NCBI GenBank assembly: GCA_050084515.1
Contig: CM114271.1
Location: 3,038,001 to 3,102,000, forward strand
Direction: 5' to 3'
DNA: 64,000 nucleotides
Origin: Blasia pusilla
Taxonomy: Eukaryota
The number at the start of each line of letters is the position of its first letter. Position 1 is the first letter of the stretch. The notes below the pieces were generated by a model. The model searched no databases and was not told the origin of the DNA. It worked only from the letters and a program-made list of their open reading frames with translations. This document shows positions 126 to 63,444 of the stretch, one piece after another. The position numbers and the translations under genes were made by a program.

Positions 126-554
126 TGTTGGATTCTCAACATCCACTTCGCTAAGCACCATTAATCTGATCGGCCCGCTTGTATGAGGAGAAGCCTAGAT
201 TGATGGTTCCGACTTAGACGTTGAAGGAGTCATAGTAATATGACGTAGATGGTTTCTGGAGTAGTGTTACTAGGATTATCTAACCCTACATTGTATCAGG
301 TTACCCGCACCCTGATGCAATAAAGCGTTAGATAATCTTAGTAACGAAATGAAGAAAAGTAGGTAAAAAACCCTAGTTTCCCGAGTAGTGAAAGAGTCGG
401 GAGTCGCAACGGTAGCGCATTCTCGTATGCCAAGTTATCTCCATGTTCAGGTTCCATCGAAGCTCTTCTATGAGCGCACGGACGGACTAGGCCACTTTGT
501 ATCTCTAAGTTTTGTAAATATTTCAGTGATTTCATCATTTTATGTTTTCTCACA
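126..554 (+). repeat. 5' LTR of copia element
   Basis: TGTTGGATTCTCAAC...TTTTCTCACA, homologous to 16985-17387. Confidence 0.96.
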
Positions 555-566
555 TGGTATCAGAGC
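555..566 (+). promoter_or_regulatory. Primer-binding site (tRNA-iMet)
   Basis: TGGTATCAGAGC directly after the 5' LTR. Confidence 0.95.
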
Positions 567-626
567 ATGAGGTTTTCCAATATTTTGTATATGGCGATCT
601 AGTGTGTTTGCACGAAATCTTGAGAG

Positions 627-1945
627 ATGGCTACTTCTTCATCAGTTTGTGCTCGCCCTCCTCCGCTTGATGAAGGGAAGTTACATGGGTCTAACTATCT
701 ATTTTGGAAGTTCAAAATGAGGACTGTCCTCGAATCATTTGAGATCTAGGAGACAGCCACAAGGGATTGATTCGAATTCACAAGCTACTTTGAGTTCTGC
801 ATATTCATCTTCATCTGGTGATATCGATCTTATTGTAATGCTCGCATGGAAACGCAGAAACGTGGATACTCTATATGCGATTGTCACAAATGTAACTCTT
901 TATGTCATGACTCTCATTAAAAATACGACCACTGTTACTGAGGCGTGGAACATTTTGAAGAATCAGTATGAAATGAGGACTGAGACTGGGATTCAAAATC
1001 TGGAGAATCAACTTACATCCAAGAAATTTTCAGAAGGAGAAAGGGCGGAGCAATTTTTTACAAGGATCAAGAATCTTCAAGATCAGATGGCGTCCGTAGG
1101 AATTTAAAAGTCTAGCGAAGATTTGGCACGTCGGTGCATAAGGATTTTGCCTCCAAGGTATGACAATTTGGTCACTGCATTGAAGACTCAAGTAGGACCC
1201 ATGCCACTTACTTTTGAACAATTTAGTGCAATGTTGATAGAAGAGGAAATGGGCTTCAAAGCAAGAGAGTGATGGGGTGATGCACCATTTGCTGCCAACG
1301 TACAGAGAGGTAGAAATCAGGATTACAGTGCAAATGTCAAGAAAAAATTTCCAAGGAAATCCTTCAAATGCTTTTATTGTGGTAAGCTATGTCATCTTAT
1401 CAAAGATTTTAGAAAGAGGAGTGAGGATGAGAAGAATGGTTGTTTAAGACCTAAGAAGGAGTCTGGAAATTCTGTAGAACTAGGAGAACATGAAATAGAT
1501 GCTTGCGTAGCAATCGAAGAGTTTTGCACACAGCCCGAACATTCCACTAAATCAAAGAGTGAAGATAAGGATTGGTATAGCTCCTTACAACCTCTATAGG
1601 AGCCCATTGTTATTACTGTTGGAAATAATGTAAAGTGCCCTATAGAAGGGAAAGGCATAATTTCTTTAGTCTCACAAAAAGGAGATGAAAAGAAGTTAAC
1701 TGATATACTATACGTACCAGAGTTGAAGCGGAATTAGATTTCAGTAGCAGTATTATGTGATTGTGACCTAGAAGTTTGTTTCAAGAAAATAGAAGTTGTC
1801 ATTGAGGATGCCAATGGGAAAGTAGTGGGTGAAGGTATACGACGTAGAAATATGTACGAGTTGTATGCTTTCACGACAAGTGTAGGTACAAATCTTAGTA
1901 GCCGTAAGATGTGGCATGAAAGAATTGTTCACCTAAGCTTTCCTT
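627..1945 (+). pseudogene. Copia gag, zinc knuckle and GAG-pre-integrase (5' part of polyprotein)
   Basis: NYLFWKFKMRTVL, EAWNILKNQY, knuckle CFYCGKLCHLIKDF and WHERIVHLSF. Several stops and frameshifts. Confidence 0.9.
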
Positions 1946-2728
1946 GGGGGCTGGTATTTTGGCAGGAGAGAGTAAGAGAGGAGAGGAAGAGAGGAAGAGA
2001 GGAGAGTCTCTCTTCAAAAAAAAGGGCCAAATCCGCCTCCTCTCTTCAAAACTTTTTGATAGATTTGAAATTTTCGTTTGCTTTCAAATTCAGGAAATCT
2101 TTAGAAGAGAGTAGGTAGTGGTCAACATTTGGCCCTAAAAAAAAAGAAAAAAAAAAGTAGACATCATAAGACCACTACAAACTTTTTTCCATCACTCTCC
2201 ATGTGAGCCTAAGTTTCTTAACATTACCTGTCTCGGTCTACAAAAAGCAATGCCCATGGGTATTTTTGTTGGAGGACCACCCGGATGCCAACCTCTCTTT
2301 TTGCAAGGATTGTTTGCATCATGGCCTCCTGAATTTCCCCATAACCAACTTTTTGGTTATGAATGGTGTCTGCTCAAGACCAACTTTGTGAAATGTGAAC
2401 ACATGAGAGGATAATTGAACCAAAAGATTGTTAGTATGCTGGAGTAAAGAGGAACTGATGTCCCTTCATTCAGATCCTAAAGCTGAGAAACCGAGAAGTG
2501 CACCTCCCAACCCGTAAGAAAGCTCACCATAAGAAAGGAAAGATTTTTAGAAGTGATTTTCTTCCACGCACCCACAAAAATCTAACAAGTTGGGAATCGA
2601 AATGGCAACGAGGTAGTAGGAATCTGCACATCTTAGACAAGAAAAGAAGCCTACAACTAGTTTGACGAATGAAGGGGAATGAGCCAAAAGTTAAGAAGCC
2701 CGCCACAATGCGTCAGAAGTTGGTCTCA

Positions 2729-3680
2729 CAGGGAAAGAGTCCGATCACTCAAGCAACCAACCTGTCGGAATCGGACAACTTGCCTGGAAATGGTTAAAAA
2801 GTTGCAGTGGGCAAAAAGCAAAAAGTTGCAACCCGTCGGAATCATACGGGTTGCAAAATTGTAATTCTGAGTAGCTAAAAGAACACAATCCACAAGTCCA
2901 AAAAAATATTCCAGCAAACTTTTACAAACACCATTATGGGTTGAAAAAATCTCGTCCTTTATTACCTCCAAAGGAACCTCGGAAATGTACATTTGACCTA
3001 GTCTATGATTTCTTCAGCCTTGTCATGTACAAATTTACTCCTAAGGTGTGATACCAAAGGAATGTCCTGGGATACAAGTGGCTCCTCGGCCGATTGTAGA
3101 CGGGGATCAAAATGTTGGCGAGTCGAGAGCCTTGGCCCCCCCAAACGCCATAACGGTCCCATGTAACCTGATTTGAGTCCCCACCGCCTTCCTCGAGATA
3201 CCTTGTACGCTCTACAATGTGACACCCATCCAAGTATCAATATGTGCTCTGTCCTTGGTAATACCATTATGGCAATCGCACAGGTAGTAGGAATCCAACA
3301 CGTATGAGAGAAGAAAAGAAGCCTACGCCTGCCTTTACGAGTTGAGGGGAAGGTGCCAAGGGAAGAAGCCCCCGAGACTGCCTCTTAAGTTGGACCAATA
3401 GGGAAAGAGTCCGATCAGGAAACCTCTCGGAATCCGACACGTTGCTTGGAAGTGGTAAAAAGGTGTTGTCGTCAAAAAGTGAAAACTTGCAAGCAGGAGA
3501 AATCCGACGGTTTGCAAAATAGAAGTCCGCGGAGTTCATAGACAATCACATTCGAAAAGACATAAAAAATGTTCAACAAACTTTTACAAGCACCACCATC
3601 ATTCGAAAAAATCATCTCCTTTATATCATCCGAAAAAAGCTCGGAACTGTACATTTGATCTATTCTATGAAATCTTTTGC
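2729..3680. repeat. Diverged ~280-bp direct duplication (about 2730-3020 and 3400-3680), each copy with two palindrome units
   Basis: Shared AGGGAAAGAGTCCGATCA, CAAACTTTTACAA, GAAAAAATC and TGTACATTTGA blocks. Confidence 0.8.
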
Positions 3681-4365
3681 CTCATCATTAAATAGCTCCC
3701 TACTCCAAACGCTGCAGTCAAGCTGGGTCCTTGAGTTCTTTGAACTCACTCGTCATCGTCCGAGAGCTCTTGCAAAATTACTTTCGGCCTTGCCCTCACG
3801 ATTTTCAGAATCATTGGAAGTGACGATGGAGTCACTACCAATGGTGGGTCTTGATCCGGAGCTCTCAGCTTTGGTGGAGAGTTGTACGCCCCAACGAGCC
3901 TTTCGTATTCTGCCTTTGCCTCCTTGCAAAGGTCAAACAGTTCTTGCCTTCCTCGAGGCGAGAGAATGTTCTCGGCACACTGCCAGCGCCTTTGATACTT
4001 GCCCCTGAAAGTCCCACTAAGTCAAACACCAAGTCACCCGGCCTTGAGCAGAGCTCGATGAGCGTTTGCATCAAGGATGGCGACTTTTCCCTTCCTCCCA
4101 GAAGTGGGGTACCGTCTTGCATGTAAATTCCTGGGGGGGAAATTATACAAACTATCTAAGCTGCACCCATCTGAGCATGGATCCACAGGATCCTGGATCT
4201 TGAACACCTGGAAATTATGCTCGGGCCGAACAGCAGTAAATGTAGGAGTGGTCCATCTGTAAAGAACCACGTTGGAAACAATGTCAGCAACTTGGCATAA
4301 TGTGCAACAAGTCATCAAAGAAGTCGGCTTGACCCTAGAGAACTTTTTTCAATTACTAACTTTGG

Positions 4366-4733
4366 AGCAACCTGTCGGAGTCCGACGGGTTGTTTGTCCC
4401 TGACCAACCAGTCGGAAGGCGACGGGTTGGTCAAGGACGGGTTGGCTGGCCTAGAGCAACCCGTCACTTTCCCACGGGTTGCAGCTTTCCAGAAACACAA
4501 GGAAAAACCAAAAGCAACTGAAACCCGTCTGGTTCTGACGGGTTGCAGCTACACCATGGTTTTCCCTGTGTTTCACGGAAAGATGCAACCCGTCGGGTTC
4601 CGATGGTTGCAGGTACACCACGGTTTTCCCTGTGTTTCTGGAAAAGATTCAACCCGTCGGAAACCGACGGGTTGCTCTTAGCCGAGCATGGGCTGCTCTA
4701 AGCCAGCAACCCGTCGCCTTCCGACGGGTTGCT
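4366..4733. repeat. Array of ~7 palindromic 27-bp units in predicted intron 3 of the ParB-MTase gene
   Basis: For example GCAACCCGTCGCCTTCCGACGGGTTGC and CAACCCGTCGGAAACCGACGGGTTGC, mostly 55-65 bp apart. Confidence 0.92.
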
Positions 4734-6799
4734 CACGGACAAAAACATCAGAGATATACTATCTGAAATTCACACGCACTGAGATTATACTACAGGAATT
4801 GAGCCTTACCCGAATCTCACTCGTCGCGGATCGGAGTGGGTACTTGTTTTTTATGATCCACAATTGCGCCGTCCTCCACTTTAGCGACCTCTTGACACAC
4901 AGGAGGTTGAAGAGCTCGTCCTCGCTCCCTCCAGTCAACACTAAGAATTCACTCGATGATAGGCGCCGCAAAGAAAGGAGAACAATAGCGCGATTTGGTC
5001 ATAAGAAGAGCGGCACATTCGATCAAGTACCCGTCCGACGGATTCTTGCCCCCGATCGCAACCAGCGGGCGAGGGCAGATCAGCCATCAAGAGATCCACC
5101 GCAACCTCTTCGACCACTCCATTCACCGTCCAGGCATCATGCGTGTTTCGTTGGAGCTTCCGTCCCAACGTTGACAAGCGTCCTCCTTCAGTTCACTCCT
5201 TTACTGGATGAAGGAGTGAACTAAAGGAGGACGCTTGTCCGGGTCGTTGTTTGTCATGTCTTCCCAAGGATGATGGATGTATTCTCCTTGGGACAACATT
5301 GGCACCTCTCGCTTCCGCTTCTCCCGAGTCATGACGGGACGGCTTGTCGGGGTCTCTATGAAGACTATGGTGGGGTTTTTTTCGCCGAGGACCTGGTCCG
5401 ACCCTCTCTCCCCGCTCGCCCAGACGATTCCGCCTCTGGCCTTGAATCTTCAGCCTCTCTTTGGGAAGACTTGGCCTCGGAATTTTTCCCTCCCCTCCCC
5501 TTGCCTTTGAGACCATTTGTGGATTTGTCTTTGGTGTGCGGACCTTGAAGCCAACTTATCTCGTGGGCTTGCTCTTCCGCATCTCCTCCTCGAAGTCTTG
5601 AGTTGCACAAAATTGGGGATGTCGATTCAGCATCATGAAGCACTCATAAATCCTTATTAGTGATGTCTTCAGGGTCGTTGAAGTCAAGCCAAATGGGGCA
5701 ATTCTCCACCTCCCAATCGGACATGTGAAGCCCCATCTCCATGTCGTACATGGAGAATGTCTCTCCATGAGGCGGCGAAGCCCACAATTTCAAGGCTTCC
5801 GGTAAATTTCCCAGTGTACTGCATTCTTACTTTGGACAAGGTACCAAGACCATACGTTAGGCGCTTTTACTCGAATGAATCGGCCGTCTGCAAAATCTGA
5901 GATCTCGCTTCTTCTTTGCTTGATCCCGTTTGTTCCCCTCGATTTCTTTGTTAAGCATCGAGGGAGGACGCAAACCTTGAACATTGTCTTGAATCCTGGG
6001 GTTTTGATTGGCTTGTCCCGGATGTCTTCGAGCCAAACCTCAAAATCTACAGAACTTTCAAGGTTTGCTTCATCCGGAATGGGCTCTTATCTTTTGAGCT
6101 CCGCTTGCATCATCTAGCACGGACTTCCGATAACCCACAATGGTGGGAGATCATCGATTGGACACACCAGAGGATGGTGTGCCGCCCTCTTCTGGGCCTT
6201 TGTGCCCTCGAGACTGATTTTCATCAGTCGGATCCTCCTAAATTCGCTTATGCAGGAAAACGCAAACCGATGCACGCGATCCAGGGACACTTTCTCCCCA
6301 ATCCGACCTTGCGGATCTTCATCCCTTTTCCGCTCGCGCTTGATAATCGCCTTTAGCTCCTTGTAAAACTCCTGATCAAGTTTGGGGTTGAGAATGCTGA
6401 TGTATCGCTGCATCTTGCTCGCCATGTATTTCGTGGCTGCAGATACTGCAGCTTGGATGAATTCCGCGCGCTTAGACCCTAATACTTTCTCCCTCCGCTC
6501 CAACTCCAGTGCATCGCTCTTCTTCGCGGCCTATATCTTCGACCAGCAAAGGATGGTTACGGCTGCATCTTGGGAAATAAACTTATTTGCCCAAGTTTTC
6601 TTCTTTATCTATGCATCCTTTGCAAGCATCTGATTTACCAGGGCGTCGCCCAAGAACCCCTTGTACTCTTCCGGGTGCGTCGTAAGCACCTTCTTCACCC
6701 GATCGCAGTCTGGGATCCAATGGTGGGTGACATTCCCCTCCGATACAATCCTGCACATCCAAACTCAATCCGTCAGAAAAGTTTTAAGTTACATGGGTT

Positions 6800-7448
6800 C
6801 CTGCAACCCGTCGGATTCTAGCAACGAGCTAAATGATGCAACCCGTCGAAGTCCGATGGATTGCATTCACATTTGTGAATGCCTGGTTTCAACCCGTTGG
6901 ACTCCGACGGGTTGTCAGATATTCCGTATCAAATGTGAACATAGGAACCCGTTGGAGTCCGAGAGGTTGCGCAATTGAATGGAAACTTGCAATTTGACAC
7001 GAAATTTGCTAAACCAACTTCCGAAGACAACCCGTTGGACTCTGACGAGTTGCTTTCAGCCAAAAACATAAAAAAAACCTCCAAACAGTTTCGAGTCAAG
7101 CAACCCGTTGAACTCCGACGGGTTGCTTTGGGCCAAAAACATACTAAACATGTGGTCAGTCGAACAACTGGTCGGAGTCCAACGAGTTGCTTTCTTCAAA
7201 AAACATCTTGAAAAGGCGGCGATTCGAGCAACCCGTCGGACTTGGACGGGTTGCTTTGGGCCAAAAACTTACTAAACCTGTGGTCAGTCGAACAACTCGT
7301 CGGAGTCCGACGAGTTGCTTTTGGCAAAAAATTACCTAACCCATTCATCAATCGAGCAACTCGTCGGAGTCCGACGAGTTGCGTTTGGCCAAAAGCATCC
7401 CAACAACAAGGCAGACCCAAACAACTTGTCGGAGTCCGACGGTTTGCA
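6800..7448. repeat. Array of ~11 palindromic units in predicted intron 2
   Basis: For example GCAACTCGTCGGAGTCCGACGAGTTGC, about 64-bp period in the right half. Confidence 0.92.
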
Positions 7449-8919
7449 GCAAGAAGATACTTACGTGTTCATGGCATGCATTGCCATCTCCATCGTTGCC
7501 ATGTGATGAGGGAATGGATGAAGGACCACTGCCTTCACGCAAAAATGTGCCTCCAAGGAGTTGGGCCGCTCCTCTGCAAACTTGGTCCATGCCATGAACC
7601 TGTGATTTCCATCCCAGATGAAGAAATACAGATTCCTCATCTTGCTGAATTCTATGCCTTGTACTTGCCTTCTGAAATCCTGGTCTCTCATCCTCCGGAA
7701 TGTGTCGAGCTTATCCAAGTCCTCCTCCGTAACCAGGGCTTGGGTTCCATGCTCGTCGTAAGGCTGAACATAGAAGGGAGGAAAGTTGTTGACGTAGGAT
7801 GCTGTCGCCGCCGATTGTTTAAGCTTCGCGATGTCCTCGTCGGACTGAATTTCGCGGACGTATTCCATTGTCCGCAATCGGCAGAGTGGAATCCTCGGGG
7901 CGTTGTGGCCCTCCATCAGTGCCATCTGCATTACCACTTGTCAGAACCGGGACAAGATCAATAAGCTACACTGAATTCCCAATGAATTGCAATTCACATA
8001 ATTCAAAAAACCCAGATCCTCTCTTACCCGCTCGAAAATTGGGTCCGTTTCTTGCCCAGCCAACTTGTCTGAGACGGCAGCTGGCAAATCGACTGGGAAC
8101 TCGTTGATGCGATAGAGGTCGATGTCTTCCGCCGGGCTTGGAGACGAGAATGACCACTCTCCGGCTTCTTCGGCAATATCCACCATCTCCACGCTGGCGG
8201 TCCTCATGACCTCATCGTCCGTGATTTGAACTTTTGGCGTTTCCGCTATGTTGATTGTGTCCCCGGACTTCATCGGGGACATTTCCCGCATCTCAACACT
8301 TTCGGTTGGACGGGCAGGGCTGTCGTCAATGGCTTTCGCTTTTTCCCTCCTCGCTTTAGCCAATTCTACTCTCCTCACCGATGCGTCCAGACGCTTCTTT
8401 TCTCTCTTTTCGTCGGCGATCCTTTTCTTCAAGGCCTACGATGTCTCAGCCTCTGCATTCTGTCTATCGAGCGCCTCTTGAACACGTCTCGCAAGAAGCT
8501 CCTGGTTGTGCATCTCCGCTTCCCTTTCCTACTCCTTGATTTCCTACAGCCTAATTTCATTTGCCGAACAAGGCCCTGGAGATGCTGACTCAGGAGTCCT
8601 AATGGACTTCGGAGTGAAGCTCCCAGACTTGTTTGCTTGAGATTTTTTCCTCGTCATTTTTCCCGGAAATGCCTCCACCTATGTCCTCGATGAATCGCTT
8701 GATCAGTCGCCTTGCTGATGTCGAGATGAGTCGCCTTGATGGGAAGCTCGAATCGTCTTGCGATCGTTGAAAAGCCGAACCGTCTCGCTCTCGTTCCCTC
8801 GTATCGACTCGCGATGACTCGCCATGTGAAACGCCCCTTGGTATTTGATCAGCTGCTGCGCGGGAGAGAGAGGAATGGAGATCGCGAAATGAGAAACCGG
8901 AAATGAGCGATTTCAGCCC

Positions 8920-8927
8920 TATTTATA
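8920..8927 (-). promoter_or_regulatory. Candidate TATA box for the ParB-MTase gene
   Basis: TATAAATA on the minus strand, about 260 bp upstream of ATG 8657 and next to the central palindrome array. Confidence 0.5.
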
Positions 8928-9016
8928 CTTTTCTAGCCGTTGGGCTGACCGTTGGGTCCCGTCGTCCTTTTGACGGTGACGTGCCGACCGTTACGGAAGT
9001 CCGGACGTGAAAAATG

Positions 9017-9770
9017 GCAACCCGTTGGAGTCCAACAGGTTGCGCGCCTCGCCGTCCTGGGAAGATAACGCGAGGTGCGCCAGCAACCCGTCGGAGATCG
9101 ATGGGTTAAGCGCCTCCGCCGTCTTCGGACAAGAACGCGAGGTACCCGCGCAACCCGTCGGAGACCGACAGGTTGTGCGCCTTCGCCATCTTCGGACAAG
9201 AACAGGGCGTACCCGTGCAACCCGTCGGAGACCGACATGTTGCGCGCCTCCGCCGTCTTCGGGCATGAATGGGACGTACCCGTGCAATCCGTCGGAGACC
9301 GTTGGGTTGCACGCTTTTCTTGTCAAGGGTTAATTACGTGGGCTTTCCGCGCAACTCGTCGGAGCCTGACAGGTTGCACGCTTCCTTCATGTAAGCGAAA
9401 CAAGGCGAGGCCCTTGCGCAACCCGTTGGAGGGCGACGGGTTGCACGCCTCGCCGTCTTTGGGCAAATAGGTGCGGCACCCGCGGGACTCGTCGGGAACA
9501 GACGGTTTGCACGCTTCTTTCATGTAAGTGTTACACCGTGAGATAATTGGGCAACCCGTCTAATGCCGATGGGTTGCAAGCCTCCGGCATCTTCGGGCAA
9601 GAAGGATCGGTATCCGAGCAACTCGTCAGAGAGCGACGGGTTGCCAGCTTCGACCATGTTTGCGTTTGAAGGTAAGGCAGAAGCGTGCAACCCGTCCGAA
9701 GCCGACGGGTTGTAGGCTTCGCTTAGCTTGGGTTAATTGTTGAGTTACCAGGACTCCGACGGGTTCCAAA
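9017..9770. repeat. Central array of ~12 palindromic units between the divergent genes
   Basis: GCAACCCGTCGGAG..CGAC.GGTTG units at about 9017, 9083, 9149, 9216, 9283, 9350, 9417 and onward, a 66-67-bp period. Confidence 0.93.
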
Positions 9771-9959
9771 AAAATGAAGTGTGATTCGCAACCCATGTCT
9801 CTGCTTCCCAAATCTGGTAACACATTGCAACAGAATTGGATCCATTGTGTTAGACAATGTCACCTACCAAACTTCATCTTATCAGTAAAAATCTGTCAGG
9901 AGTGATGTTTTCCTATTCACTACAAATTAAAAATTCTCACTCTCAACAAAATTTTGGGA

Positions 9960-12900
9960 ATGGATAATTATGTGAAGCTTACTTTGTGGCGAGTCATCGC
10001 GGCCCTTCCTCAATCAGAAATCATTCGACCGCAAGCTCGTGAGTCTTTCATAGTAGTGGATGAAAATTTTCTCTCTGTTCGATTTCTTCTCCAAATTGGA
10101 ACCATCTTTGTATCCAAAGATGTTAGGGTGGACGGTACGGAAGACATAATAGGTGAGACAGTCCAACCAGTGACTGCAGACCATAAAGTATGGAATCTCC
10201 TACCTCTAGCAAATGGTCAATACAGAGTTCTGGCGTGTTCTGATCGTCTGTTTAAACAGACGAATTGAGGAAACAAAAATACTTGGGAAATTTCCCAAGT
10301 AGACGGTGGAGAATTTCCTAGTGCTCCGAGCTCTACGTTTGCAACTCCTAGCTCAGTACATCCGGCTTTGACTCCAATCTCACACGCTCGTATCATTTTT
10401 GTTCTTCCTGACGAGATTCCGGATGTTATCAACCTCAGTGGATGTGTCGGACACCAACCGGGCCCTCCGTCCGCCTACTCGTTCCTCTTGCGAGTATCAG
10501 GCAATAGTTTGCTTTCGTCTCTGGCCTTGAAAATGTTCAAGCACATTCTTGTCAATGAGTTGCCACCCACGTACGATGGTAATTGCATTTTTGAGTTGCC
10601 TCCACTTGCTGCTCCTGCTCAAAAGAAAGATGGAGGACGCCTGAAGGATATGGATAGAAAGTTTGATTGTCATCGATGGTGCAGGCTTCAACGGACTAGT
10701 GCTTCAATTCCAGATGGTCCTTGGATTGTCTCCCGCCGCCAATGCGTGGGAGCCTTGGAGTGTAGAAGTCCAGCATGCCCGTATCTAGAGCGCAACGGGC
10801 GAGTCAATACGTCGTAATTCCCCCCCCAAGAATGAGAAACTCCATACGAGGTCGGTGCCACCATACCGCCGGGAGGCCATCGATGTCCTCATTGTCAGGC
10901 ATCGCCCTTCTGCGTTGGAGCGTGTCCTGCATACATATTTTTCATTGTCCACGAATTGGGCTCCACGCCGAGTACACAAGGTGGGAGTTCATGTTGGCTC
11001 CCACACTCATCCTGTGACCGATGCAATTCAAAGACACATCAAGGAGGATGTGGCGAAGAAAGTTGCCGAGGTCTACAGAAACTCTCCGGGTTCAAAGCCC
11101 GGAGTGATCAAGCTCACAACGACATCACAAATTTGTGAACAATTTCTTGGAATCCCTAGACAGGGCGAGATTACGGCGGTTGAGGAGAAACAACTCTGGG
11201 AAAATCTCGCATTTCTCGCTGATCCTGAATGCTTCCGGAATTTGCTGTGTCAAATACGAGTTCTGGATGGAAAGACGGCCGAACTGGATGCCATCGCCAT
11301 AATCAAGGCCAACTCCAGATTTCCATTCATTCACAGATGGCAGTTCATGGGTCTAGGAGGCAAGGGATCCATGGCCTATGTCTTCAAAATGTCAACCACA
11401 TGTCGGTCGAGTGGCTTCGATCTTTCCGGCAGCAAGGTAAGCTTTGATATTTGCTACAAAGTGCTGAACGGATGGTTGACGATGGGTACTCACGTTTATG
11501 ACCATATGGAGAAGGAACTCAAAACTATATTTGTGTGTGAAGTAAAGGCAGAAGACGTTGGCAGTTTGAAGATGTGCTCGTTACTCTTATTGGAGGTGGT
11601 GAAGGAAAACAAAAGGCCACCTCCGAAAATTTATGGGTTCATGGCAGACAATGCACAACCTAGGTGGATTGCTATCCGGGAAGTGTTCTGGGGGAAAGGT
11701 TGGATGCTTTCCATTGGCAACAGTCTGTGACCCGGTACACCAAATCTTGCATCAAGGAGAATAATAGGACAGAGCATGTGACTCTACTCCAACGCTGCAA
11801 GGATAGAAAAACCTTGAAGCAGGCCATGGAATGCCAAGAAGAACTTTATGAGACAATGGGGAAACTTCATGCGGCAGGTGAGTTCACTATTTTGTCTTGT
11901 CAAGCTCACGCAAAGAATTGTTTGTAAAGTTGCAGCATCAGGTTGAGAAGCGTAGGAACTATAGGGATTTCAAACCGAAGAAACCAAGCAAGCTCTCACA
12001 TGCGATGGGTTGCCCGAGTGTGCAACCCGAAGGAATCAGACGGGTTGCATCCAGAATTTTGGTGCAACCCGAGTGTGCAACCCGACGGAAACGGACGGAT
12101 CGTAGAGTTGTTCATGGGATGCCTCGGCCTTGCAACCCGTCTGAATCCAACGGGTTGCAATAGGTGGGTTTAGGGTTGCAACACGTCGGGACCCGACGGG
12201 TCGCAGAGTCGTTCATGGGATGCCTCGGCCTTGCAACCCGTCTGGTTCCGACGGGTTGCAGTAGGTGGGTTTAAGGTTACAACACGTCGTGACCCGACGG
12301 GTCGCAGAGTCGTTCATGGGATGCCTCGGGCTTGCAACCCATCTGGTTCCGACAAGTAGCTTATGTCTTTGACTGCTGAGTTATTTTCGTTCCCTTCTAA
12401 TATTGCCGTCGTTGCAGGGATTGAACGTTCATGAAAATGCCCTCTGCCCCAACACAAGTGGAGCAGAAAGTGTTCATTCCTCCTGGAGGTCGTCACAAGC
12501 ATGCCAACGAATTTCACTTGTGGAGGCAAAGATGCACCATCCCATATCTTCCTCACAAAAGGCATAACAAAAGGAAGGGGGCCGTTGATCTACGAGCTCT
12601 ATGTCAGGGCGGCTGTGAGATCTGATGATGAAAAAATGTATGTGGAAGCCTTCAATCGGTGCGTAGCTGGAACTCCCCTTGAGCAAGACGTACACATTGG
12701 TGGGGATATTCGTGGGCGGGTTTCAAGATGTCCCATACAGATGGTGGTAGAGCAGTCCGAGCGAGACTCGTGGAGACGAGATAAGTATCTTGACTTCAGG
12801 CAAGTGAAGAGGCAGCATCGAGGAACGAATTTGGTGATTGATTTGGATGAGGAAATTATGCCGCCCAGGTATTCAGGGACCCCGGACCCGTCCCAAATCC

Positions 12901-13888
12901 GTGATTGAGTTACTTCTCCAAAATCAGTGAATGTTTTATTTCAAAAGCCCTCCGTTGCTGGAAGTTCGCAACATCCTGTCACTGGGGTGGTTCAACAATA
13001 TGGGATTCCGGTAATGGAGGTGAATTGCAACCTTAAACGGTGGCATATATCTCGGAGCAACCCAAGACATGGACCCACCTGTAGGGCAGGATCTGATGGC
13101 ATAAGGAGAGCATGCGGCACTTTCCTACATAAGAACTCTACAAGGATTGGACGACCACTGCCTGGGTTTTGGGGACTCAAAACCTTTGATCTTTTCACGA
13201 GGACCGGGGATCAATTGAAGTGCTTCTTCTGCCCAAATGAATCTTTGCGCTTTCCGGAAGTCTTATCCGGCTGCCATTGGAGCTCGGGGAATACCCCCAC
13301 GATTTGGCCCATCGCCGCAGGTACGAACTGCACTCAAGACGAAGTGGACAATCTTACAAGTGCCGGTTTTACACTCGTAGACGGGGGAAGTTTGGAGCAA
13401 GTTCGCATTACAAAGGCCTTTGCATTTTGTATTCAACCCAAGATTGATGTCAACATGTACCCGGAGAAGGTGGATGATCTCAATCCATTATTTCTGTTTG
13501 AGTCTAGAAATGGGGTGAAGAGAAACAGAATGTGTAGGCCAACGGTGGAGAGAGCAAAGCGAATTGCATCAGCTCGGGAGGAAAAATGGAGATCATCGCC
13601 ACGAAATATGTCTCGAGTGGCAATGGAATAGGAAGGATGTATTGGGTCAGGAACAACATTGTAAATTCAAGTGTCAGAGGGGTGTATGTGGTGCACATCT
13701 GTTGCTTTCCCACATGTTCATGTGATGACTTTTTCCAAAGAGAGACAAGTGGCAAAAGGTATTTCCCTTGTAAGCACATGTACTATGTGTTGCTGGTAGT
13801 TTTAAGAGAGTCGGAGGAAGGAGTAGGAATCCACCAACCAATTCTGTCCCTCAAAGAAGTGCGAAGTATTTTAAACAAACCACTTTGA
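9960..13888 (+). pseudogene. MULE-type DDE transposase with N-terminal Cys/His zinc-binding region and C-terminal SWIM finger. Intron 11878-12417.
   Basis: CVGALECRSPAC...HVGSHTHP, then SFD, GFMADNA, FHWQQS and PNTSGAESVHSSW (putative D-D-E), then SWIM CSCDDF...PCKHMYYV. Stops and frameshifts present. Confidence 0.85.
12000..12356. repeat. Array of ~7 palindromic units, including a ~101-bp higher-order tandem, in the transposase intron
   Basis: GCAACCCGTCTGGTTCCGACGGGTTGC. The block GTTCATGGGATGCCTCGG recurs at about 12110, 12211 and 12312. Confidence 0.9.
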
Positions 13889-14286
13889 GGATGCAAAATG
13901 AGGTTTTAGATTGTACTTTTATTTTTCCTGAACCTTCACTTTGAGCTTGAACTCTATTAAGCCCGGGGCAAATGATAGATTTTTTCGAGATCTTGGATGG
14001 AAAAAGTGATTGATTCCACACTTATGATTCCACTGATTTTTCAGTTTTCTAAATTTTGTGCAATTTGTAACTCGTCGGACTCAGAGGGGTTGCCAAAATA
14101 TGGAAGAGGAAAAAAAAAACTGTGGGACTACTTAATATATGAACAAAAAAGTGCAAAAAAATTCAAACAAAAAGTTTCGTCTCTTCTACCCAACGGAAAC
14201 TCTCTTCAAAAAAAAGTGTCTATTTCGGTTGAAGGTAGTTTCCTCTCTCCTCTCTCCTCTCTCTTCCTCTCCTCTTACCGCACCTC

Positions 14287-16953
14287 GCTTTCCCTTACTA
14301 AGTCAGGTGTAGAAATATGGCATGATTGCTGATTTACCAACAATTTTGGAGTGTCGGATACATATGAAGCTTGTATGATGGGCGAGCAACACCGAAAACC
14401 ATTTCCACAAGAGTTCAGAAATAGAGCAAAGGCTCCTCTAGAGCTGATTCATGCTCACCTCTGTGGTAAAATGAGAACAGTGGCATTAGGTGGTTCTTCC
14501 TACTTCTTTTTAGTTGTCGACGATTATACTAGGAAGATGTGGGTGTATTTCCTTTGTGATAAGGCAAGTGCTTTTGGAAAATTTAAAGTATGTCACAACC
14601 TGGTTGAGAATGAGACAAGAAAGAAGATACATAAGCTTCGCATCGATTGAGGAGGAGAATTCTTATCAACAGAATTCAAAAAATATTTGGAGGAGCATGG
14701 AATCAAGCGACTATCAACCACGGCACATACATCACAACAGAATGGAGTTGTTGAGAGTCGAAACTGTACAATGGTGGAGATGGCAAGATGTATGATCAAA
14801 GAAAAAGGTTTGACAGAAGGATTTTGGGCTGAAGCTGTTAATATTGCCGTTAACATTCTAATTAAAAGTGCTACCAAATCAGTGCAAGGCATGACTCTTC
14901 ATCAATCATACTCAAATAAGATACCATTAGTCCAACATTTCATGACTTTTGGTTGTGAGTGCTTTGTACATATTCTTCGAGCATCTAGGATCAAGCTAGA
15001 GTCCAAGAGCAGGAAGTGCATCTTTATGGGATACAATGATGAGTCTAAAGCTTATCGCCTATGGAGTCTTGAGGCTAAGAAGATGCTTGTGAGTCGTGAT
15101 GTGGTATTCCGGGAACAGCCTTTTTAAGTGGCGGATATCAGTGGTCCGTCCACATTATCATCAAACGAAGAGATAACCCACCAAAGCATACTACCAATGT
15201 TTACACCAAATCATCAAGAAGAAGAATTTGATGATGATTACAAAGAGTAGCCTATTCTTCCACTACGGTCATCATACCCTAAGTGGATAAAGCAGCTCTT
15301 GGATGGTAAGGATCCAGTATCAACTGATGAAGTTTTTACATATCCAAGGAGATCCAAGAGACTAGAGGAGCAGAATAGAGCTTCCACACATCTCATCAAC
15401 ATGGCCTTGATGACAGAGGTTTTGAAGGTGGAAGAGCCATCATGCTCGGATAAGGCCCTTTCTCATCCTCAATGGAGAGACGCCATCCAGATGGAGATGG
15501 ACGCTATTCAGAGAAATGAAACTTGAACTTTGGTTGAGAAGCCAAAGGACATGAAGATAATACGCACCAAATGGATGTACAAGACCAAGTATAAGTTGGA
15601 TGGTACATTGGATAAATTCAAAGAGAGGTTGATTGCACAAGGGTATTCACAAATCAAAGGTTTTGACTACTATGAGACTTTTTCTCCTACTGCAAGGATG
15701 AAAACCATTCAAATTGTTCTAGAGGTGGCACGAACAAGACGTTGGCATGTATACCAATACGATAAGAAGTCTGCTTTTCTGAATAGGAGTCTCTAGGAGG
15801 AGGTGTATGTATCTCAACCACCAGGTTTCGAGACACTCGGATGAGAAGAGAAAGTGTGTTTACTTCATCGAGCATTGTATGGGTTGAAGCAAGCCCCAAG
15901 GATATGGTATCAACAAATAGATACATTCTTTGGAGAGAAGGGTCTCATCAAGAGTCTGTCAGAAGCAAATTTGTATGTGTTTTGCGAAGATGGGATGTAT
16001 ATGTTGATAGTCATGTATGTGGATGATCTGATCATCACACGACACCATAGTAAGAAAATAGAAGAAATGAAGGGAGTGTTGAAATCGAAGTTTGAAATGT
16101 CAGATTTAGGTCTTTTGCACTACTTTATAGGGCAGGAGATTTGGCAACAATCAGATTCTATTTTTCTCTTTAAGCAAAAGTATGCTAGAGAAATCTTAAA
16201 GGCATTCGAGATGACTGAGTGTAAGGTAGTGGTCTCGCCAATGGAGGTAGAGTTGAAACTCTCAATGGAGGATGTTTCACCATTGGTAGATGAAAAGTTG
16301 TACAAAAATCTTGTAGGCAATTTGATATTGTGTGTAACACTAGACCAGAAATTAGCTTTGTTGTGGGAGTGTTGAGTAGGTTCTCAACTAAACCTCATGA
16401 GAACCATTGGAAGGCAGGGATGCGCATGTTGAAGTATATCAAAGGCACTATCGAGTACGACATCACCTATGGAGCACGGACAGAAATAATACCTTTTTGT
16501 GACTCAGATTGGGCAGGAGTTTCAGATTCTCGGAGATCAGTTTTGGGTTATTGCTTCTTGGTAGGATTTGGTGTGGTGCCATGGGTCATCAAGAAGCAAC
16601 CTATAATGGCTCTTTCTTCTACCGAGGCAGAGTACAAGGCGGTTTCTTATGCTTCTTGCGAAGGAATATGGTTGAGATGGATATTTGAGGACATAAGAGA
16701 AGCACCAGAAAGTGCTATTGTAATATGGTGTGACAATCAGAGTTGCATTGCCACAGCACATAATCTTGTGTTTCATGCTTGTATAAAACACATATAGATC
16801 CAGTATCATTTTGTTTGTGAGTTGATTGAGAGAGAGGTTTTGAAGTTAGTCTATTGGCCAACAGAGGATAATTGTGCAGACATCTTCAAGAAAGCATTGA
16901 GCGAAGATCAGCTTCACTAACATCTGAAGGATCTTGGCATTGGTCCAAGATAG
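14287..16953 (+). pseudogene. Copia integrase, reverse transcriptase and RNase H
   Basis: PLELIHAHLCG, VDDYTRKMWVYF, QQNGVVE, RALYGLKQAPRIW, YVDDL, CDSDWAG, ALSSTEAEY. Confidence 0.96.
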
Positions 16954-16976
16954 TAGTCCACATGAGAGTGGATATT

Positions 16977-16984
16977 AGAAGGGG
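16977..16984 (+). promoter_or_regulatory. Polypurine tract
   Basis: AGAAGGGG immediately before the 3' LTR. Confidence 0.8.
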
Positions 16985-17387
16985 TGTTGGATTCTCAACA
17001 TCCACTTCTCTAAGCACCATTAATCTGATCAACCCCCTTGTATGAGGAGAAGCCTAGACTAATGGTTCCGACTTAGACGTCAAATAAGTCATAGTGATAT
17101 CACGTGGATGGTTTCTAGAGTAGCGTTACTAGTATTATCTTACCCTATATTGCATCAGGAAAAAAAATTATATCAATAGAAATGAAGAAAAATAGGCCAA
17201 AAACCCTAGTATCTTGAGTAGTGAAAGAGTCAAGAGCCGCAGCGGTAGCGCATTCTCATATGTCAAGTTATCTCCATGTTCAGATTCCATCAAAAGTCTT
17301 CTGTGAGCGCACAGACAGACTAGGCCACTTTGTATCTCTGAGTTTTGTAAAGATTTCAGTGATTTTGTCACTTTCTGTTTTCTCACA
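16985..17387 (+). repeat. 3' LTR of copia element
   Basis: TGTTGGATTCTCAAC...TTCTCACA, followed by TSD TATAC. Confidence 0.96.
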
Positions 17388-20300
17388 TATACCTCTTGCA
17401 CTCCTAACACTTGCAAGGAAAAGATTATATAAATATGTGCTTCTCGTTAGTATAGCTCGTTGAGTCAATATGTTGTAAGCCAGAATAATTGCAAATAGTC
17501 AGAGAAGTGAACAACCCGTACGGATCATAAAAGATTCTTCAAAGAAAGAGAACACTTATCTGTCATCCTCAAGAAGCCCCAATTGGATAGCAACTTCCTT
17601 GAATGTTGGACATAATACTCCATCAACAATTTTCAAACATTCGTATATAATGGCTCCTCGAACATTATGGAGGAGAAATCTCAACCAATGACATCCTCCT
17701 TCACCTATGAATGAGTGATATAAATTAGCTCATCCCTTTCCATAATAATTCACTCACTTGACAGAGTGAAATATAAAACCAAAATCCAATGTACACAAAA
17801 AAGCATTCACTTGGTTAAGTAGTGTATGATTGGGCAATGGGATGGCCACAACCATTTATTTTTGTACCCTATGAATCCATCTTTTTTTAGTTCGACGATA
17901 ATATGAAGGAAAATATGTATACAGATATTGTCGACTCTTGGACTCAGATAGATTCGTTGCGAATCGTTGTATTAGAGTTGTCTCTCTATTCAGTTGCAAA
18001 ACATCTTATGGGGTGTCAACATCATTGAAGTACACCATTTGATGCTCTGGAAGATGAATAGCTAATCACATAATACTTGGAAGTTCAACATGTAGACTAA
18101 ACTTGAAGAATCGCCAACATGCCTCCAAAGAAGATAATCATAATTCCAAAAAAAAAATCCTTAATCAATAAAATTATTCCTCGCATCAAGATATGACGTT
18201 GTCTTATCAATGACTTCCATTGCGGTGGATGTATTCATATCTTTTGGAAATTTAAATGTCACCACATCGGATCCCTTATGTACATAATTATATAAGTATT
18301 TTACGATAGAAACACTACTTATGATCTCCAAATTAATGTGACAATTAAAGAGGGCTAATAACATATGATTGTAGGATACGACCCAACGAATGCTCATGCT
18401 TGGTTATTTCCCTCTTAGTCTCCAATCTACAATTACAATAAAAGATCATGAGTACATTAAGGTCATATGGCTTACAATAATAATAAAGAAACGCCAAGAA
18501 AAGAAAAAGAAAAGATCCTTACCTGCTATAGACTGGGTAACCATCTTCAGTCTCTATAGTGTTGGGTGCAAAAGCTTTATGATAGCCTTTGGTACACTTT
18601 TTTGTTTCCTTATACATACATGGTGCATTTTGATTCTATGATCCACATTGCATGTGAAGGATGCAATTAGCAACAGTAGAATACAACATTAGGTGGGTAG
18701 ACTTATCCGGAATTTTTGCTGAAATGATACGATTATAATCAGAGGTAGTACGTGGTTTATCCTCATGAACTAAAATAATAAGAACATGCACATGTGGAAA
18801 ACCTCTTTTTTTGGAATTCCACCACATGGATGCATCCAACGAATTGACCCAATATTTTCTTGTTAATCATAAGTCGTAATAATTCCTTTTTCTTCTTAAA
18901 AACCCGCACAACCAAATCAATTAGGTCTACAATTGATTGACCGGTTAATAAGGCTGATCTAATCCTCTCCCACTTAAGATTGCATGTCATGGTCAAAAAG
19001 TAGTTAAGCTTTTCTAATTGTCTCATAATTGCTATAGCATCTTGATAAAATTGATGCATATGATGGGGCCCTCGAGTAAAATAAGAGGATAATACAATGC
19101 GTCTCCCAAACCTTCTACTGTCCATATCATGTCGATGCATGACATCCTTTAAACCTTGATATAATTCAGCCCTCAACTCCTTCTGATTTAAGCAGACCCA
19201 TTATAATCTTTGCATCTCTACAGTGGCATAAAGGTCAAACATATACTCTTGATTAAGTGGACTAAATCTCAATAAGCGATCGTTGTCTTTACCTCCAATT
19301 CGCGTTTGAAGTAAAAAATATGCAAGTGCAAGGCTATAACACTCATTGACCTTATTTCCACAATATTATCACCAACAAATGTTTCCTCATCCATACAATT
19401 TTCTGAAGGATCAATATGTTCCTCCTCCCCATGAATAACATGGCCTATTCGTGTGGGTCTTTGAGTCCCTTCGAGTCTCCCAAAGTGTATTCTGAGATGC
19501 CAACGTGCTTCACCATAGATAAATAATACAACAAAGTGTAATGGAACATATGCTTCGTTGAGGTCAAACATGCACCTCCATGTAGTCGTACAATTATATC
19601 ACGATGGTTAATGTTTCACTTCCATCACCTGGAAAAATAGCTGCAACCTCAGAAGTAGTTGCTTAGTTATAATGCATTTCATTGAGACCTCTCTTACTTT
19701 CCTTGAGAATGATCTGCATATTAAGATCAATTGCTTCATATGCCATATGACGGAAGATCTTCACAAATGGATTGCATTCATGCAACATCTCTTCTATCCC
19801 TTTCAAGATGTTTATGTTAAGATTAGAAGATCTAGACACAACGCGTCCACTTTTCTCAATTTTATTTACAATATCATGAATATAGAGCCGAGCAAATTGG
19901 GGATGCCCCCTATATCAGGATGTAAGGGTCCATTAGAATGACAAATTCCTCCTTGGATCCTAAAGTGTCAAATGCCACCAACTTGTTCATTTACATGCAC
20001 ACTAGTAGATGCAAGTTGAAGTGTTGGATTGTAAGTGCGAGCATGTGTAAGGGAATGAAGACTTCTAGGACCAACACCCAAAATCAACGGTTTAAAAAAT
20101 GGAGGAGATAATTTCAAGAGGGGCAAATGTATTCTCCAAAGGCCACAACACATGCCATATGGTGAGTAACTAAACTTTTTACCTTTGACAATTCCACATT
20201 CCCAATGCAAGGCAGAACATGATGGGCATATTTTTGTCATAGAACCCAACGTATGATAACAACTGGTACGACTCAAACCCCTTTGTAATCGCAACTTCCT

Positions 20301-62094: not shown

Positions 62095-63444
62095 ATCGCC
62101 CCCCTAGCTGGTAGTTACGTCCCTCTAACTCCAGATAGCCATCTATCCCTACCTACCATGACATACATCTCTCGGACACTAAGAGCAAGAAGGTTGGGTG
62201 CTCATGTGGCCCCATCGTTAGTCACCTTCTTGTCATCCATGTCAAAGACACAAGTCAGAATGTAGAACTACCTACTCTATATACATTTGGGACATATCCA
62301 TCGTCCCTGAGGAACCCTAGTGAGAGGTGGCGTCAAAATATGCCATATGCCATCCTCTCGAACACCCATCATAAACTAGCATAGTGGATGCACCACGGGC
62401 GGAACCACACAACATACACCGCAAGCCTGCAAGAACTATTGCTAAGCTTGGATCAAATATACCGTCAATGTTCGGAAGATGACATGGCACACAGTTACGC
62501 ACATGGTCCTTCCAAACCATACCATCGCCTCCCTCCAATAAGAGAACAACGAATAGTAAAACCTCACGCACTCTCAAGATGGTGCGCCCTGTAGTCACAT
62601 CCAACGTCGTAGGTGCCGACGGCTGCAAGTAGATTAAGTCTTCTTGATGAAACCTCCGGATAGTAGGTCGATAACCACCTCCCCGAATAGTCACATACCT
62701 CAACGTATCCCGATGTTGCGCAATCGCCAAGTTCTCAAAGGCCATGGGCATCACTCTCCAAAATAACTCATCCCTCTGAGAACATTCTCGCATCCATACA
62801 TCAGGGTCATCAAGGTTCAACACCTCACCAACATCTCGACGAATGGCCGTAGGTAAATCTGGCTCTCGGTCATAAGGCAACAAGTACGGTGAGAAAGACG
62901 CTAAGGATGCCTGCCTGCTGAATCTGTATCTCATCGCCAACCACGGAAACTAAAGGTCCCAATCTCCTAGGTGACCTCTTTGCAAGCCATACTTGCGTAG
63001 TCCTCTCTTCACCATCTGCACAACCCGCTGTGCTAGTCCATCCGCCTTAGGATGATTTCGGGAAGTAGTGCAGTGGTCGATCATTGCCTAATTACACAAG
63101 GCCTGAAACTCCCCGCGGAACTCTGTACCTTGGTCTGTCAACACCTCAACTAGTGCATCGTAATGATTGAGCACTCGATCTAGGAAGGCATATGCTACTC
63201 CTTCACTTGCTTTTTCAGGCAATGCAACCAACTCTATCCACTTCGAGAAGTGCTCGACCATCACCAACACATATCGACTATGGCGCTCCGTCAAAGGCAA
63301 AGGTCCTGGCAAATCCATACTCCATCTATAACCTAAACCCATGATCGGAAGTGGATGGAACTGTGGAGTCAGAGCATTGAGCGATGCTCGGACTCGATCA
63401 CACACCATGCATCTTGCAACAAATTGCTGAACGTCAGTCTGGAT
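61339..63444 (-). mobile_element. Ty3/gypsy element 2 (same family): 3' LTR plus integrase and C-terminal PHD finger
   Basis: CMVCDR, WSMDLPGPLP, VEHFSKWIE, LTDQGTEF, and PHD-like CMLC...MLV.DGCSRGWH...GRWICPKC. Confidence 0.92.

Follow-up and report, generated by a model that had tools for sequence, protein, structure and literature searches.

In a 64,000-nucleotide (nt) window of the Blasia pusilla genome (assembly GCA_050084515.1, contig CM114271.1, positions 3,038,001 to 3,102,000), we analyzed a putative gene on the minus strand, at about 8435-3865 of the window, that ends in a remnant of a prokaryote-type DNA methyltransferase (MTase). The host DNA of the window is eukaryotic and plant-like, with fragmented open reading frames (ORFs). 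Our best account, which we hold with a probability of roughly 0.6, is that the locus is a decayed copy of the accessory gene of a high-copy Mutator-like transposon of ~12.3 kb, and that the MTase-derived domain of this gene has probably lost catalysis. An earlier note on this DNA had read four short protein strings as one beta-class N4C/N6A MTase domain with an unusual DLPS catalytic motif.

The evidence for MTase ancestry comes from the last exon, described by the following features.

3865-4155, minus strand: last exon, predicted S-adenosylmethionine (AdoMet)-binding half of a beta-class amino-MTase, with motifs in the order X-I-II/III and the stop codon at 3867-3865
Within 3865-4155, minus strand: motif X-like EKSPSLMQTL and motif II/III-like RTFSRLEE

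Pfam family PF01555 (N6_N4_Mtase) matched this exon with an E value of 0.03 and 14.7-15 bits, over profile positions 165-193 of 221. Three 'DNA methyltransferase' families of PHROGs (E values of 1e-3 to 5e-3) and eight MTase models of PADLOC, the best being MTase_III (E = 2.1e-5), matched it as well. A tblastn search against 50,697 phage records (2.3 Gb), which we regard as unbiased support, returned 84 records with a best E value of 7e-5; the best match showed 35% identity over residues 5-75 of the exon, and among the 15 records listed all 14 that carry an annotation are MTases, mostly from rV5-like phages. The best sequence match was gp230 of phage rV5 (NC_011041), a protein of 441 amino acids (aa) with DPPF at residue 73, whose residues 325-394 aligned with the last exon by BLASTP at 25 of 71 positions (35% identity) spanning motifs X, I and II/III. 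The Smith-Waterman score of this pair, with a z value of 17, was reached by none of 300 shuffles. gp230 keeps DPPF, KPE and F-G-G-S-G, and its N-terminal 320 residues have no detectable counterpart in the window. With a position-specific scoring matrix (PSSM) covering motifs X to I, a profile biased by its seed, the last exon reached 38.3 bits versus -17.9 for the next best of 28,070 positions.

Bacterial relatives were collected by a metagenome scan with the last exon, which yielded 18 loci with 34-53% identity to residues 21-88. All five that were tested are PF01555 members, one with ParB_N in front, but these loci are not independent support because they were seeded by the exact shared word RPGDLVFD. 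Twelve of the 18 were used to build our own MTase hidden Markov model (HMM), after exclusion of L003 and L008 as duplicates and of L006, L010, L015 and L016 as truncated. The same seeding biases this model in favor of the last exon, so that it serves only as a negative test for the upstream pieces; over 2,075 stop-free segments of the window, it gave an E value of 8e-10 for the last exon and of 2.1 for the next best segment.

A HMMER search of the last exon against 1.84 billion representatives gave five matches at E values of at most 1e-3, one of them genuine. This protein, P0004, has 147 aa, stems from a single 13-kb metagenome contig in ENA, and is 39% identical to the last exon over 72 residues (E = 6.9e-5). 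Alone, it matched PF01555 (E = 1.8e-4, 22 bits), PADLOC MTases (best E value of 1.1e-4) and DpnA in the PDB (E = 0.04). A two-sequence profile of the last exon and P0004 matched DpnA in the PDB with an E value of 0.003, the next match being at 0.69, and both proteins carry the lineage-specific features MxDGTP and IE[LM]CS[RK]PG. The other four HMMER matches were repeat-rich bacterial surface proteins (MucBP, InlK, HYR, beta-propeller-like), which aligned over many weak stretches and were rejected as spurious. Word-based searches with 7464-7940, 3868-4155 and 4944-5192 found no relatives of any length, nor did a scan of viral contigs with the two-sequence alignment.

These sequence comparisons show that the last exon truly derives from beta-class N6A/N4C DNA MTases of prokaryotes or phages, specifically from the half that binds AdoMet. 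Judging by them, its nearest enzymes are of the phage rV5 type, which is type-III-Mod-like. The prokaryote-type, PF01555-like remnant claimed in the earlier note is thus borne out by Pfam, PHROGs, PADLOC, the PDB and the phage search at 7e-5.

Alignment with gp230 places motif I of the last exon at 4023-4003, where D-L-V-G-L-S-G stands against D-S-F-G-G-S-G, with Leu in place of the central Gly. The FxGxG loop that binds AdoMet is therefore altered, as had been claimed, with V-G-L-S-G against F-G-G-S-G in this one copy. Leu is encoded here by CTT (4011-4009), and reaching any Gly codon from it takes two or more base changes. Motif I of P0004 reads D-L-S-A-S-T-S; both Gly residues are gone, and Ser is found at both positions. 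A motif X of the HPxxKP type is kept in neither protein (REKSP in the window, SREIL in P0004). The last exon retains the Asp that precedes motif I and the acidic residue that follows strand 2 (RLEE). The loss of the central Gly of motif I, here and in P0004, together with the lack of a detectable canonical catalytic half, implies that the family protein most likely no longer binds AdoMet. On the basis of one decayed copy and one fragment, the pattern of motifs I and X favors a loss of AdoMet binding in the lineage, from which we infer loss of catalysis. The suggestion of a catalytically dead reader thus gains weight from the CTT codon and from the Ser residues of P0004, on the footing of a single copy.

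The gene lies within a large insertion whose structure is that of a Mutator-like DNA transposon.

1946-14286, either strand: DNA transposon (Mutator-like), 12,341 bp, nested in the integrase region of a copia element
1937-1945, either strand: left copy of a candidate 9-bp target-site duplication (TSD), GCTTTCCTT
14287-14296, either strand: right copy, GCTTTCCCTT, with one extra C
1977-2006, partner 14245-14275, either strand: GA-rich terminal inverted repeat (blastn, 29/31 matched)
10269-13885, plus strand: transposase-like ORF pieces, frameshifted, Mutator-like, with a C-terminal CxC...CxH SWIM-like motif

The reading frame of the copia element (…HLSFP / LLSQV.KYGMIADLPTI…) resumes directly across the 1946-14286 insert. 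Its inverted ends gave a local alignment score of 50, compared with a maximum of 31 in 300 shuffles; the terminal inverted repeat is of low complexity, and the exact ends are uncertain, being offset by 21 nt. The insert thus has both a duplication in the 9- to 11-bp range and terminal inverted repeats, as do Mutator-like elements (MULEs). For the transposase pieces, the ten best family-bearing clusters in an Atlas feature search were all MULE/ZSWIM (0.85-0.92), an agreement of a kind that, by the tool's own caveat, is also seen for a third of shuffled proteins; Pfam gave SWIM at an E value of 0.085. The minus-strand gene diverges from the transposase and lies inside the TSD-flanked ends. Its transposable-element (TE) context, also proposed in the earlier note, is therefore seen in the TSD, the inverted ends, the continuity of the copia frame and the MULE-like transposase lead.

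To estimate copy number, ~1.4% of one DNA run (12,434,590 reads) was mapped to positions 2500-12500 at an identity of at least 90%. In this region, 45,592 reads (0.37%) mapped, of which 373 were at 99% identity or more, 10,619 at 95-99% and 34,600 at 90-95%. Depth was ~200-1,300 in every bin, the last exon included. The family is high-copy. Its transcription is weak, with 178, 227 and 180 mapped reads among the 10.1, 12.0 and 11.1 million of three RNA runs. The first mate of the RNA pairs was on the plus strand over 2834-9179 and on the minus strand over 9848-12500, as expected of two transcription units that diverge, provided that the libraries were stranded in the usual way.

The copy in the window is broken. 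All four strings quoted in the earlier note were found on the minus strand where it had placed them, but they are split over two reading frames, with no continuous open frame. Together with the pieces upstream, they are laid out as follows.

5099-5070, minus strand: VDLLMADLPS, inside the stop-free piece 5192-4944
4998-4762, minus strand: piece with RRLSSSEFLVL and WRTAQLWIIK, in another frame than the VDLLMADLPS piece
4155-3868, minus strand: piece with EKSPSL...DLVGLSG, in the same frame as 4998-4762, with stops and a hairpin-rich stretch between them
4810-5192, minus strand: upstream exon, frameshifted in the window copy, with VDLLMADLPS first (D-L-P-S codons 5081-5070)
4156-4809, minus strand: putative intron of 654 nt, GT (4809-4808)...AG (4157-4156), phase 0 at both ends, holding a palindrome array
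5793-6530 (6530-6117 and 6086-5793), minus strand: middle stop-free pieces, no recognized domain
7944-8435, minus strand: Lys/Glu-rich N-terminal piece, with an in-frame TGA (7943-7941) between it and the next piece

The proposal of one beta-class domain thus stands for the last piece, 4155-3868, whose match is above chance, and not for the upstream pieces, which lie in two frames and have no MTase match. The upstream exon continues from DLPS as ...NPSDGYLIECAALL in a second frame and then as RRLSSSEFLVLTGGS...LWIIKNK in a third, so that 5192-4762 can be read only by using three frames. In six RNA reads that stem from other copies, DLPS continues directly into GLRLWGENPS, which unites the first two frames; the frame break at 5070 is therefore private to this copy or present in a minority. 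Relative to the window, the majority of DNA reads have single-base indels at 3960, 3950, 4140 and 5277. As those at 3960 and 3950 compensate each other and the window frame aligns well with gp230, the last exon itself looks intact. Places where the reads differ from the window by A>G or T>C number 339, versus 228 by C>T or G>A, and given this excess of A/T in the window copy where the reads have G/C, single residues of the window copy may reflect decay. The three frames, the bridging RNA reads and the TGA at 7943-7941 uphold the earlier view that this copy has decayed, and the locus is a pseudogene copy of transposon cargo.

We infer that the pieces belong to a single gene. The borders of the putative intron, as read from the sequence, are CGG/GTAAGG (start at 4809) and CTTAG/ATA (exon start at 4155), its length is a multiple of three, and the similarity of the exon to P0004 and gp230 begins at exon residues 4-5, which together suggest that 4809-4156 is an intron. 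No second copy was found within the window by tblastn with nine pieces, which returned self-matches and one 19-residue match (E = 0.26), and Rfam found no family in the window.

Other features of this copy and its relatives were observed in the reads. Directly upstream of the DLPS piece, at 5173-5239, lies an inverted repeat of 29 nt, 97% complementary, with a 9-nt loop; 78 DNA reads have an 'opposite strands' joint at 5177/5211, indicating that copies vary by a small palindromic insertion or inversion. At 5812-5900, 7383-7454, 9512-9580 and 10229-10291, many DNA reads skip 60-90 nt or differ in their letters (for instance, 269 reads at 7383/7454 and 547 at 10229/10291), which means that small insertions or replacements set the window copy apart from much of its family. 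Two direct repeats of ~400 nt, 74% identical (2601-3008 and 3274-3670), lie 3' of the stop of the accessory gene, each with one palindrome or near-palindrome. In each run, 19-36 RNA reads with loose ends on either side piled up on a stretch of ~34 nt at 3148-3181, and position 3168 is A in nearly all of these versus 23 of 290 DNA reads; the stretch looks like a short match to an abundant transcript of another locus, and 11938-11988 is similar. Finally, 5-11% of the words sampled from the 4.8-kb gene stretch occur in three 'air metagenome' runs and in runs of two other organisms. These matches are a hint only, pointing either to airborne material shed by the host or to members of the family in related organisms.

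No counterpart of the catalytic half of the enzyme was detected upstream of the last exon. The DLPS, RRLSSSEFLVL and WRTAQLWIIK pieces matched no MTase family in Pfam, PHROGs, NCBIfam or PADLOC, where the few weak matches were unrelated, and our 12-sequence HMM found nothing in them. Smith-Waterman z values of these pieces were at most 1.3 against the 12 bacterial MTases and at most 1.2 against gp230. Joining the pieces across the breaks with X brought no gain, with -1.9 bits for the N-terminal part and z values between -1.45 and 1.34 against the 12 MTases.

Two candidates for motif IV compete on the same strand, and neither need be correct. The DLPS string, VDLLMADLPSPAG, ranked fourth of 67,904 stop-free positions in six frames with a 13-residue motif-IV PSSM; the probability of a top-four rank within the right ~1.1 kb on the right strand is estimated, post hoc, at ~0.03. 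On visual inspection, the upstream exon runs colinear with the motifs of the beta class (HD...VDLLMADLPS, then SDGYL, RRL...FLVLTGGS and LWIIKNK), which lie ~125-135 residues ahead of motif X/I. The second candidate is located further upstream.

5767-5778, minus strand: SPPH, alternative candidate for motif IV, canonical-looking, in the context ...NLPEALKLWASPPHGETF... with an LPE-hydrophobic lead-in

SPPH is one of 10 [DNS]PP[YFWH] matches in all six frames of the window and has no profile support. It lies ~350 codons ahead of motif X, a spacing like that in rV5-type and type-III-Mod enzymes. Neither candidate gained support from an extended ungapped PSSM (GD...DPPY). The identification of DLPS as motif IV thus remains suggestive on its PSSM rank, but it is tempered by the lack of profile support for a catalytic half and by the SPPH rival.

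The element is rich in short palindromes. With one mismatch allowed, the half-site GCAACCCGTC occurs 59 times in the window (1.8 expected), 57 of them inside the element, and perfect AACCCGTC-N5-9-GACGGGTT palindromes occur six times (0 expected). They form four arrays with periods of 46 to 134 nt, and single sites are found near both ends of the element.

4367-4732, either strand: array of the palindrome GCAACCCGTC-N7-GACGGGTTGC, 64-nt period, inside the putative intron
6803-7447, either strand: palindrome array, 64/128-nt period
9017-9767, either strand: palindrome array, 67-nt period, in the spacer between the diverging genes
12004-12343, either strand: palindrome array, 46/101-nt period, inside the transposase region

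Inverted-repeat arrays therefore lie beside the accessory gene. The palindromes could be binding sites of the accessory protein or of the transposase; our preferred account presumes that the accessory protein would bind them.

A further piece of the gene may be ParB-like.

7464-7940, minus strand: stop-free piece with ...YFFIWDGNHRFMAW..., possibly ParB/Srx-like

Its YFFIWDGNHRFMAW string contains a DGNHR motif, which we take to recall the GxxR/DGxHR box of ParB/Srx-fold proteins. In the Atlas feature search, the piece resembled a cluster with ParB_N in 11% of its members (0.95) and a DUF6551 cluster (0.92). No ParB-type family was found for it in Pfam, PHROGs, NCBIfam, PADLOC or the PDB, which gave a few weak unrelated matches, and BLASTP against the ParB_N domain of a bacterial ParB_N-MTase (L018) yielded nothing meaningful. 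A scan of viral contigs detected no relatives of the piece, and its single-sequence AlphaFold2 model was unusable (pLDDT of 36). Our literature search found no paper on DUF3723 together with ParB. From the motif and the Atlas clusters, a ParB-like domain at 7464-7940 is a tentative assignment, to which we give somewhat less than even odds.

Outside the element, the window contains remains of retrotransposons. The insertion is hosted by an old copia-type long terminal repeat (LTR) retrotransposon at 126-17388 on the plus strand, which matches Retrotran_gag_2 (E = 2.4e-12) and SH3_retrovirus (E = 4.8e-28) in Pfam. On visual inspection, a pair of ORFs at 62317-63588 on the minus strand resembles the integrase region of a further LTR retrotransposon.

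126-555 and 16985-17388, plus strand: copia LTRs, 83% identical
721-1596, plus strand: copia gag; integrase resumes near 14290, and reverse transcriptase/RNase H extends to 16794

The nearest documented parallels are accessory genes of algal transposons, which the earlier note had not considered. The brown alga Ectocarpus has an element, Sola1-1_Ec32, with a gene for a 1104-aa protein with ParB-like and N4C/N6A MTase domains opposite the transposase, and this accessory protein was proposed to bind and modify its own element (PMC12477816). Like it, the gene in the window belongs to a large DNA transposon, runs opposite to the transposase and encodes a long protein with a PF01555-type domain, and a ParB/Srx-like motif (DGNHR) may occur in it too. 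Compared by description, the window differs in having a Mutator-like element with a 9-bp TSD, a degenerate motif I and a ParB fold that is a candidate. In Plavaka elements of the red alga Bostrychia, PAG2 combines PF01555 with SET, and PAG3 combines a domain that is ParB-like by weak HHpred evidence with a 2-oxoglutarate (2OG) oxygenase; both adjoin tandem inverted-repeat arrays and have homologues in Chondrus Mutator elements, and most PAG copies are degenerate and weakly expressed (10.1101/2025.02.11.637652). The window shares with them a TE-borne PF01555 domain, inverted-repeat arrays beside an accessory gene, low transcription and the link to Mutator. Unlike PAG2 and PAG3, it has no SET or 2OG domain detectable by Pfam, its ParB-like candidate and MTase-like exon appear in one gene, and its host is plant-like.

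Other systems resemble the element in part. In VANDAL, a group of Mutator-like elements, VANC proteins counteract silencing (as cited in 10.1101/2025.02.11.637652). The window has in common with VANDAL a Mutator-like element, an accessory gene and short-motif arrays in its own noncoding DNA, a parallel that holds only as a model of how such a system works. VANC itself is not known to have a methyltransferase fold. Phages commonly carry ParB-PF01555 fusions (10.1101/2025.10.10.680097), and Iyer et al. described ParB-fused Dam-type enzymes in chlorophytes and chytrids and judged the MTase domains of DIRS1 elements inactive in all copies (PMC4738411). DIRS1 provides a precedent for a TE-borne, catalytically dead domain derived from an amino-MTase; it differs in that its domain falls into the PCIF1-like MTase group rather than PF01555, sits within the polyprotein of a retrotransposon and is presumed to be RNA-related. 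The Marchantia enzymes DN4MT1a/b and bdelloid N4CMT are products of single-locus host genes with proven N4-methylcytosine (4mC) activity (10.1101/2021.02.12.428880; PMC8885841), which replacement of SPPY by APPA abolishes in N4CMT (PMC8885841). They and the gene in the window are eukaryotic, of the permuted beta-class PF01555 type and acquired from prokaryotes; compared by description, the window gene is unlike them in being multicopy TE cargo with a degenerate motif I. Our literature search, whose partial coverage makes it weak evidence, found no land-plant report of PF01555 in transposons or of ParB-like accessory genes in Mutator-like elements.

In our preferred account, the accessory (passenger) gene at ~8435-3865 would be transcribed from the minus strand, divergently from the transposase of the element. 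The MTase fold would have been kept as a DNA-binding or targeting module that does not bind AdoMet, and this module would act on the element's own GCAACCCGTC-N7-GACGGGTTGC palindrome arrays, a mode of action that has been proposed for accessory proteins of algal transposons (ParB-MTase, PAG) and demonstrated for the VANC proteins of VANDAL elements.

A number of points weigh against this account. The match of the last exon to the N6_N4_Mtase profile, on which the earlier note had made the homology depend, exists but covers the C-terminal quarter of the profile, and both the last exon (14.7 bits) and P0004 (22 bits) miss the PF01555 gathering cut-off of 26.7 bits. The term 'methyltransferase domain' holds for ~70 residues only, because profile and pairwise methods did not detect the catalytic half. 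The Leu in motif I and the DLPS tetrad come from one decayed copy, with 40 of 1,214 rows of read differences listed for the rest of the family, and a substitution of L for P (CTG for CCG) may simply have arisen in it by deamination. Enzymes of the M.PvuII type tolerate some variation of FxGxG, and the canonical-looking SPPH upstream means that intact copies could be active. The intron joint is not among the 15 joints listed (there are 275 more), no listed RNA joint unites all pieces in one transcript, and the ParB-like reading comes from a motif and a weak Atlas lead. In the element, Pfam found no MULE transposase (PF10551), and the palindromes could equally be subterminal repeats bound by the transposase.

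An alternative reading is an element that actively marks itself. Intact copies would then encode a working amino-MTase, with SPPH or a family-consensus DPPx as motif IV, that adds 4mC or N6-methyladenine (6mA) to parts of the element such as its palindrome arrays and so protects it from silencing; the odd residues of the window copy would be decay or tolerated variation. This is argued for by the canonical-looking SPPH with its LPE lead-in (5778-5767) and by its type-III-Mod kind of spacing to motif X, given that the best PADLOC model is MTase_III and that gp230 has 270 residues from DPPF to motif X. The Asp before motif I and the acidic residue of RLEE are kept, the family is transcribed, the A/T excess of the window copy (339 versus 228 places) allows single residues to be decay, and similar proposals have been published for the algal ParB-MTase accessory proteins. 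We nevertheless consider this unlikely, as the CTT codon is at least two changes from Gly, P0004 lost both Gly residues independently, the HPxxKP-type motif X is kept in neither protein, no profile sees the catalytic half, and composition alone predicts such tetrads as SPPH, one of 10 in the window. The more specific proposition that intact members encode a ParB-targeted amino-MTase writing 4mC or 6mA on their own palindrome arrays appears a little less likely still. As doubtful as the active enzyme in general is a capture in the style of Pack-MULEs, by which the last exon would be a functionless piece of a host or foreign MTase gene, unrelated to the pieces upstream. MULEs are known for capturing gene fragments (Pack-MULEs, as cited in PMC12477816), only the C-terminal ~70 residues of the domain are detectable, and the word-based searches gave no relative and the exhaustive search with the last exon a single short one. 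Yet the exon has clean splice-site-like borders and a stop, and upstream of it lie ~4.5 kb of stop-free pieces on the same strand with strand-consistent RNA. Beta-class motifs IV to VIII can be traced by eye along the upstream exon, in order and at sensible spacing; the 39% identity of P0004, with its lineage-specific features, suggests constraint over a long divergence; and the algal precedents, as described, are full accessory genes.

That the locus is instead a domesticated, MTase-like host gene among transposon debris, as DN4MT1 is in Marchantia, seems very improbable. Eukaryotes do have domesticated PF01555 enzymes (10.1101/2021.02.12.428880; PMC8885841), but the depth of ~200-1,300 in every bin, the exon included, arose from 1.4% of a run and mostly from reads at 90-95% identity, the locus lies inside the TSD-flanked ends of the element, and its copy in the window is broken. 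Least probable of all is a chance resemblance in noncoding repeat DNA, a reading that is refuted for 4155-3930 but may apply to the DLPS piece. The Pfam score below the cut-off and the four spurious repeat proteins among the five matches of the 1.84-billion search could be taken in its favor; against it, four profile libraries and the PDB agree on the same region of MTase models, the tblastn E value was 7e-5 against 2.3 Gb, the z value was 17, and no competing family scored comparably. We therefore retain, at the probability given above, the account of a decayed copy of a Mutator-like accessory gene whose MTase-derived domain has probably lost catalysis.

For annotation, this means that the locus is to be treated as a pseudogene copy of transposon cargo and not as a host methyltransferase. 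TE-borne PF01555 genes, some with ParB-like domains and inverted-repeat arrays, are known from brown and red algae (2025) and, earlier, from green algae. To these the window adds a very-high-copy Mutator-like family that likewise combines palindrome arrays with an MTase-derived domain and a diverging transposase. Should the domain be dead, the family would be a further case of a transposon that retained the fold of an enzyme for handling DNA. Intact copies, if active, would offer a way for 4mC or 6mA to enter a plant-like genome, and a working ParB-targeted MTase would amount to a transposon-encoded system of epigenetic self-marking or anti-silencing in a large plant-like genome, built on a bacterial and phage enzyme type so far tied to transposons in algae only.

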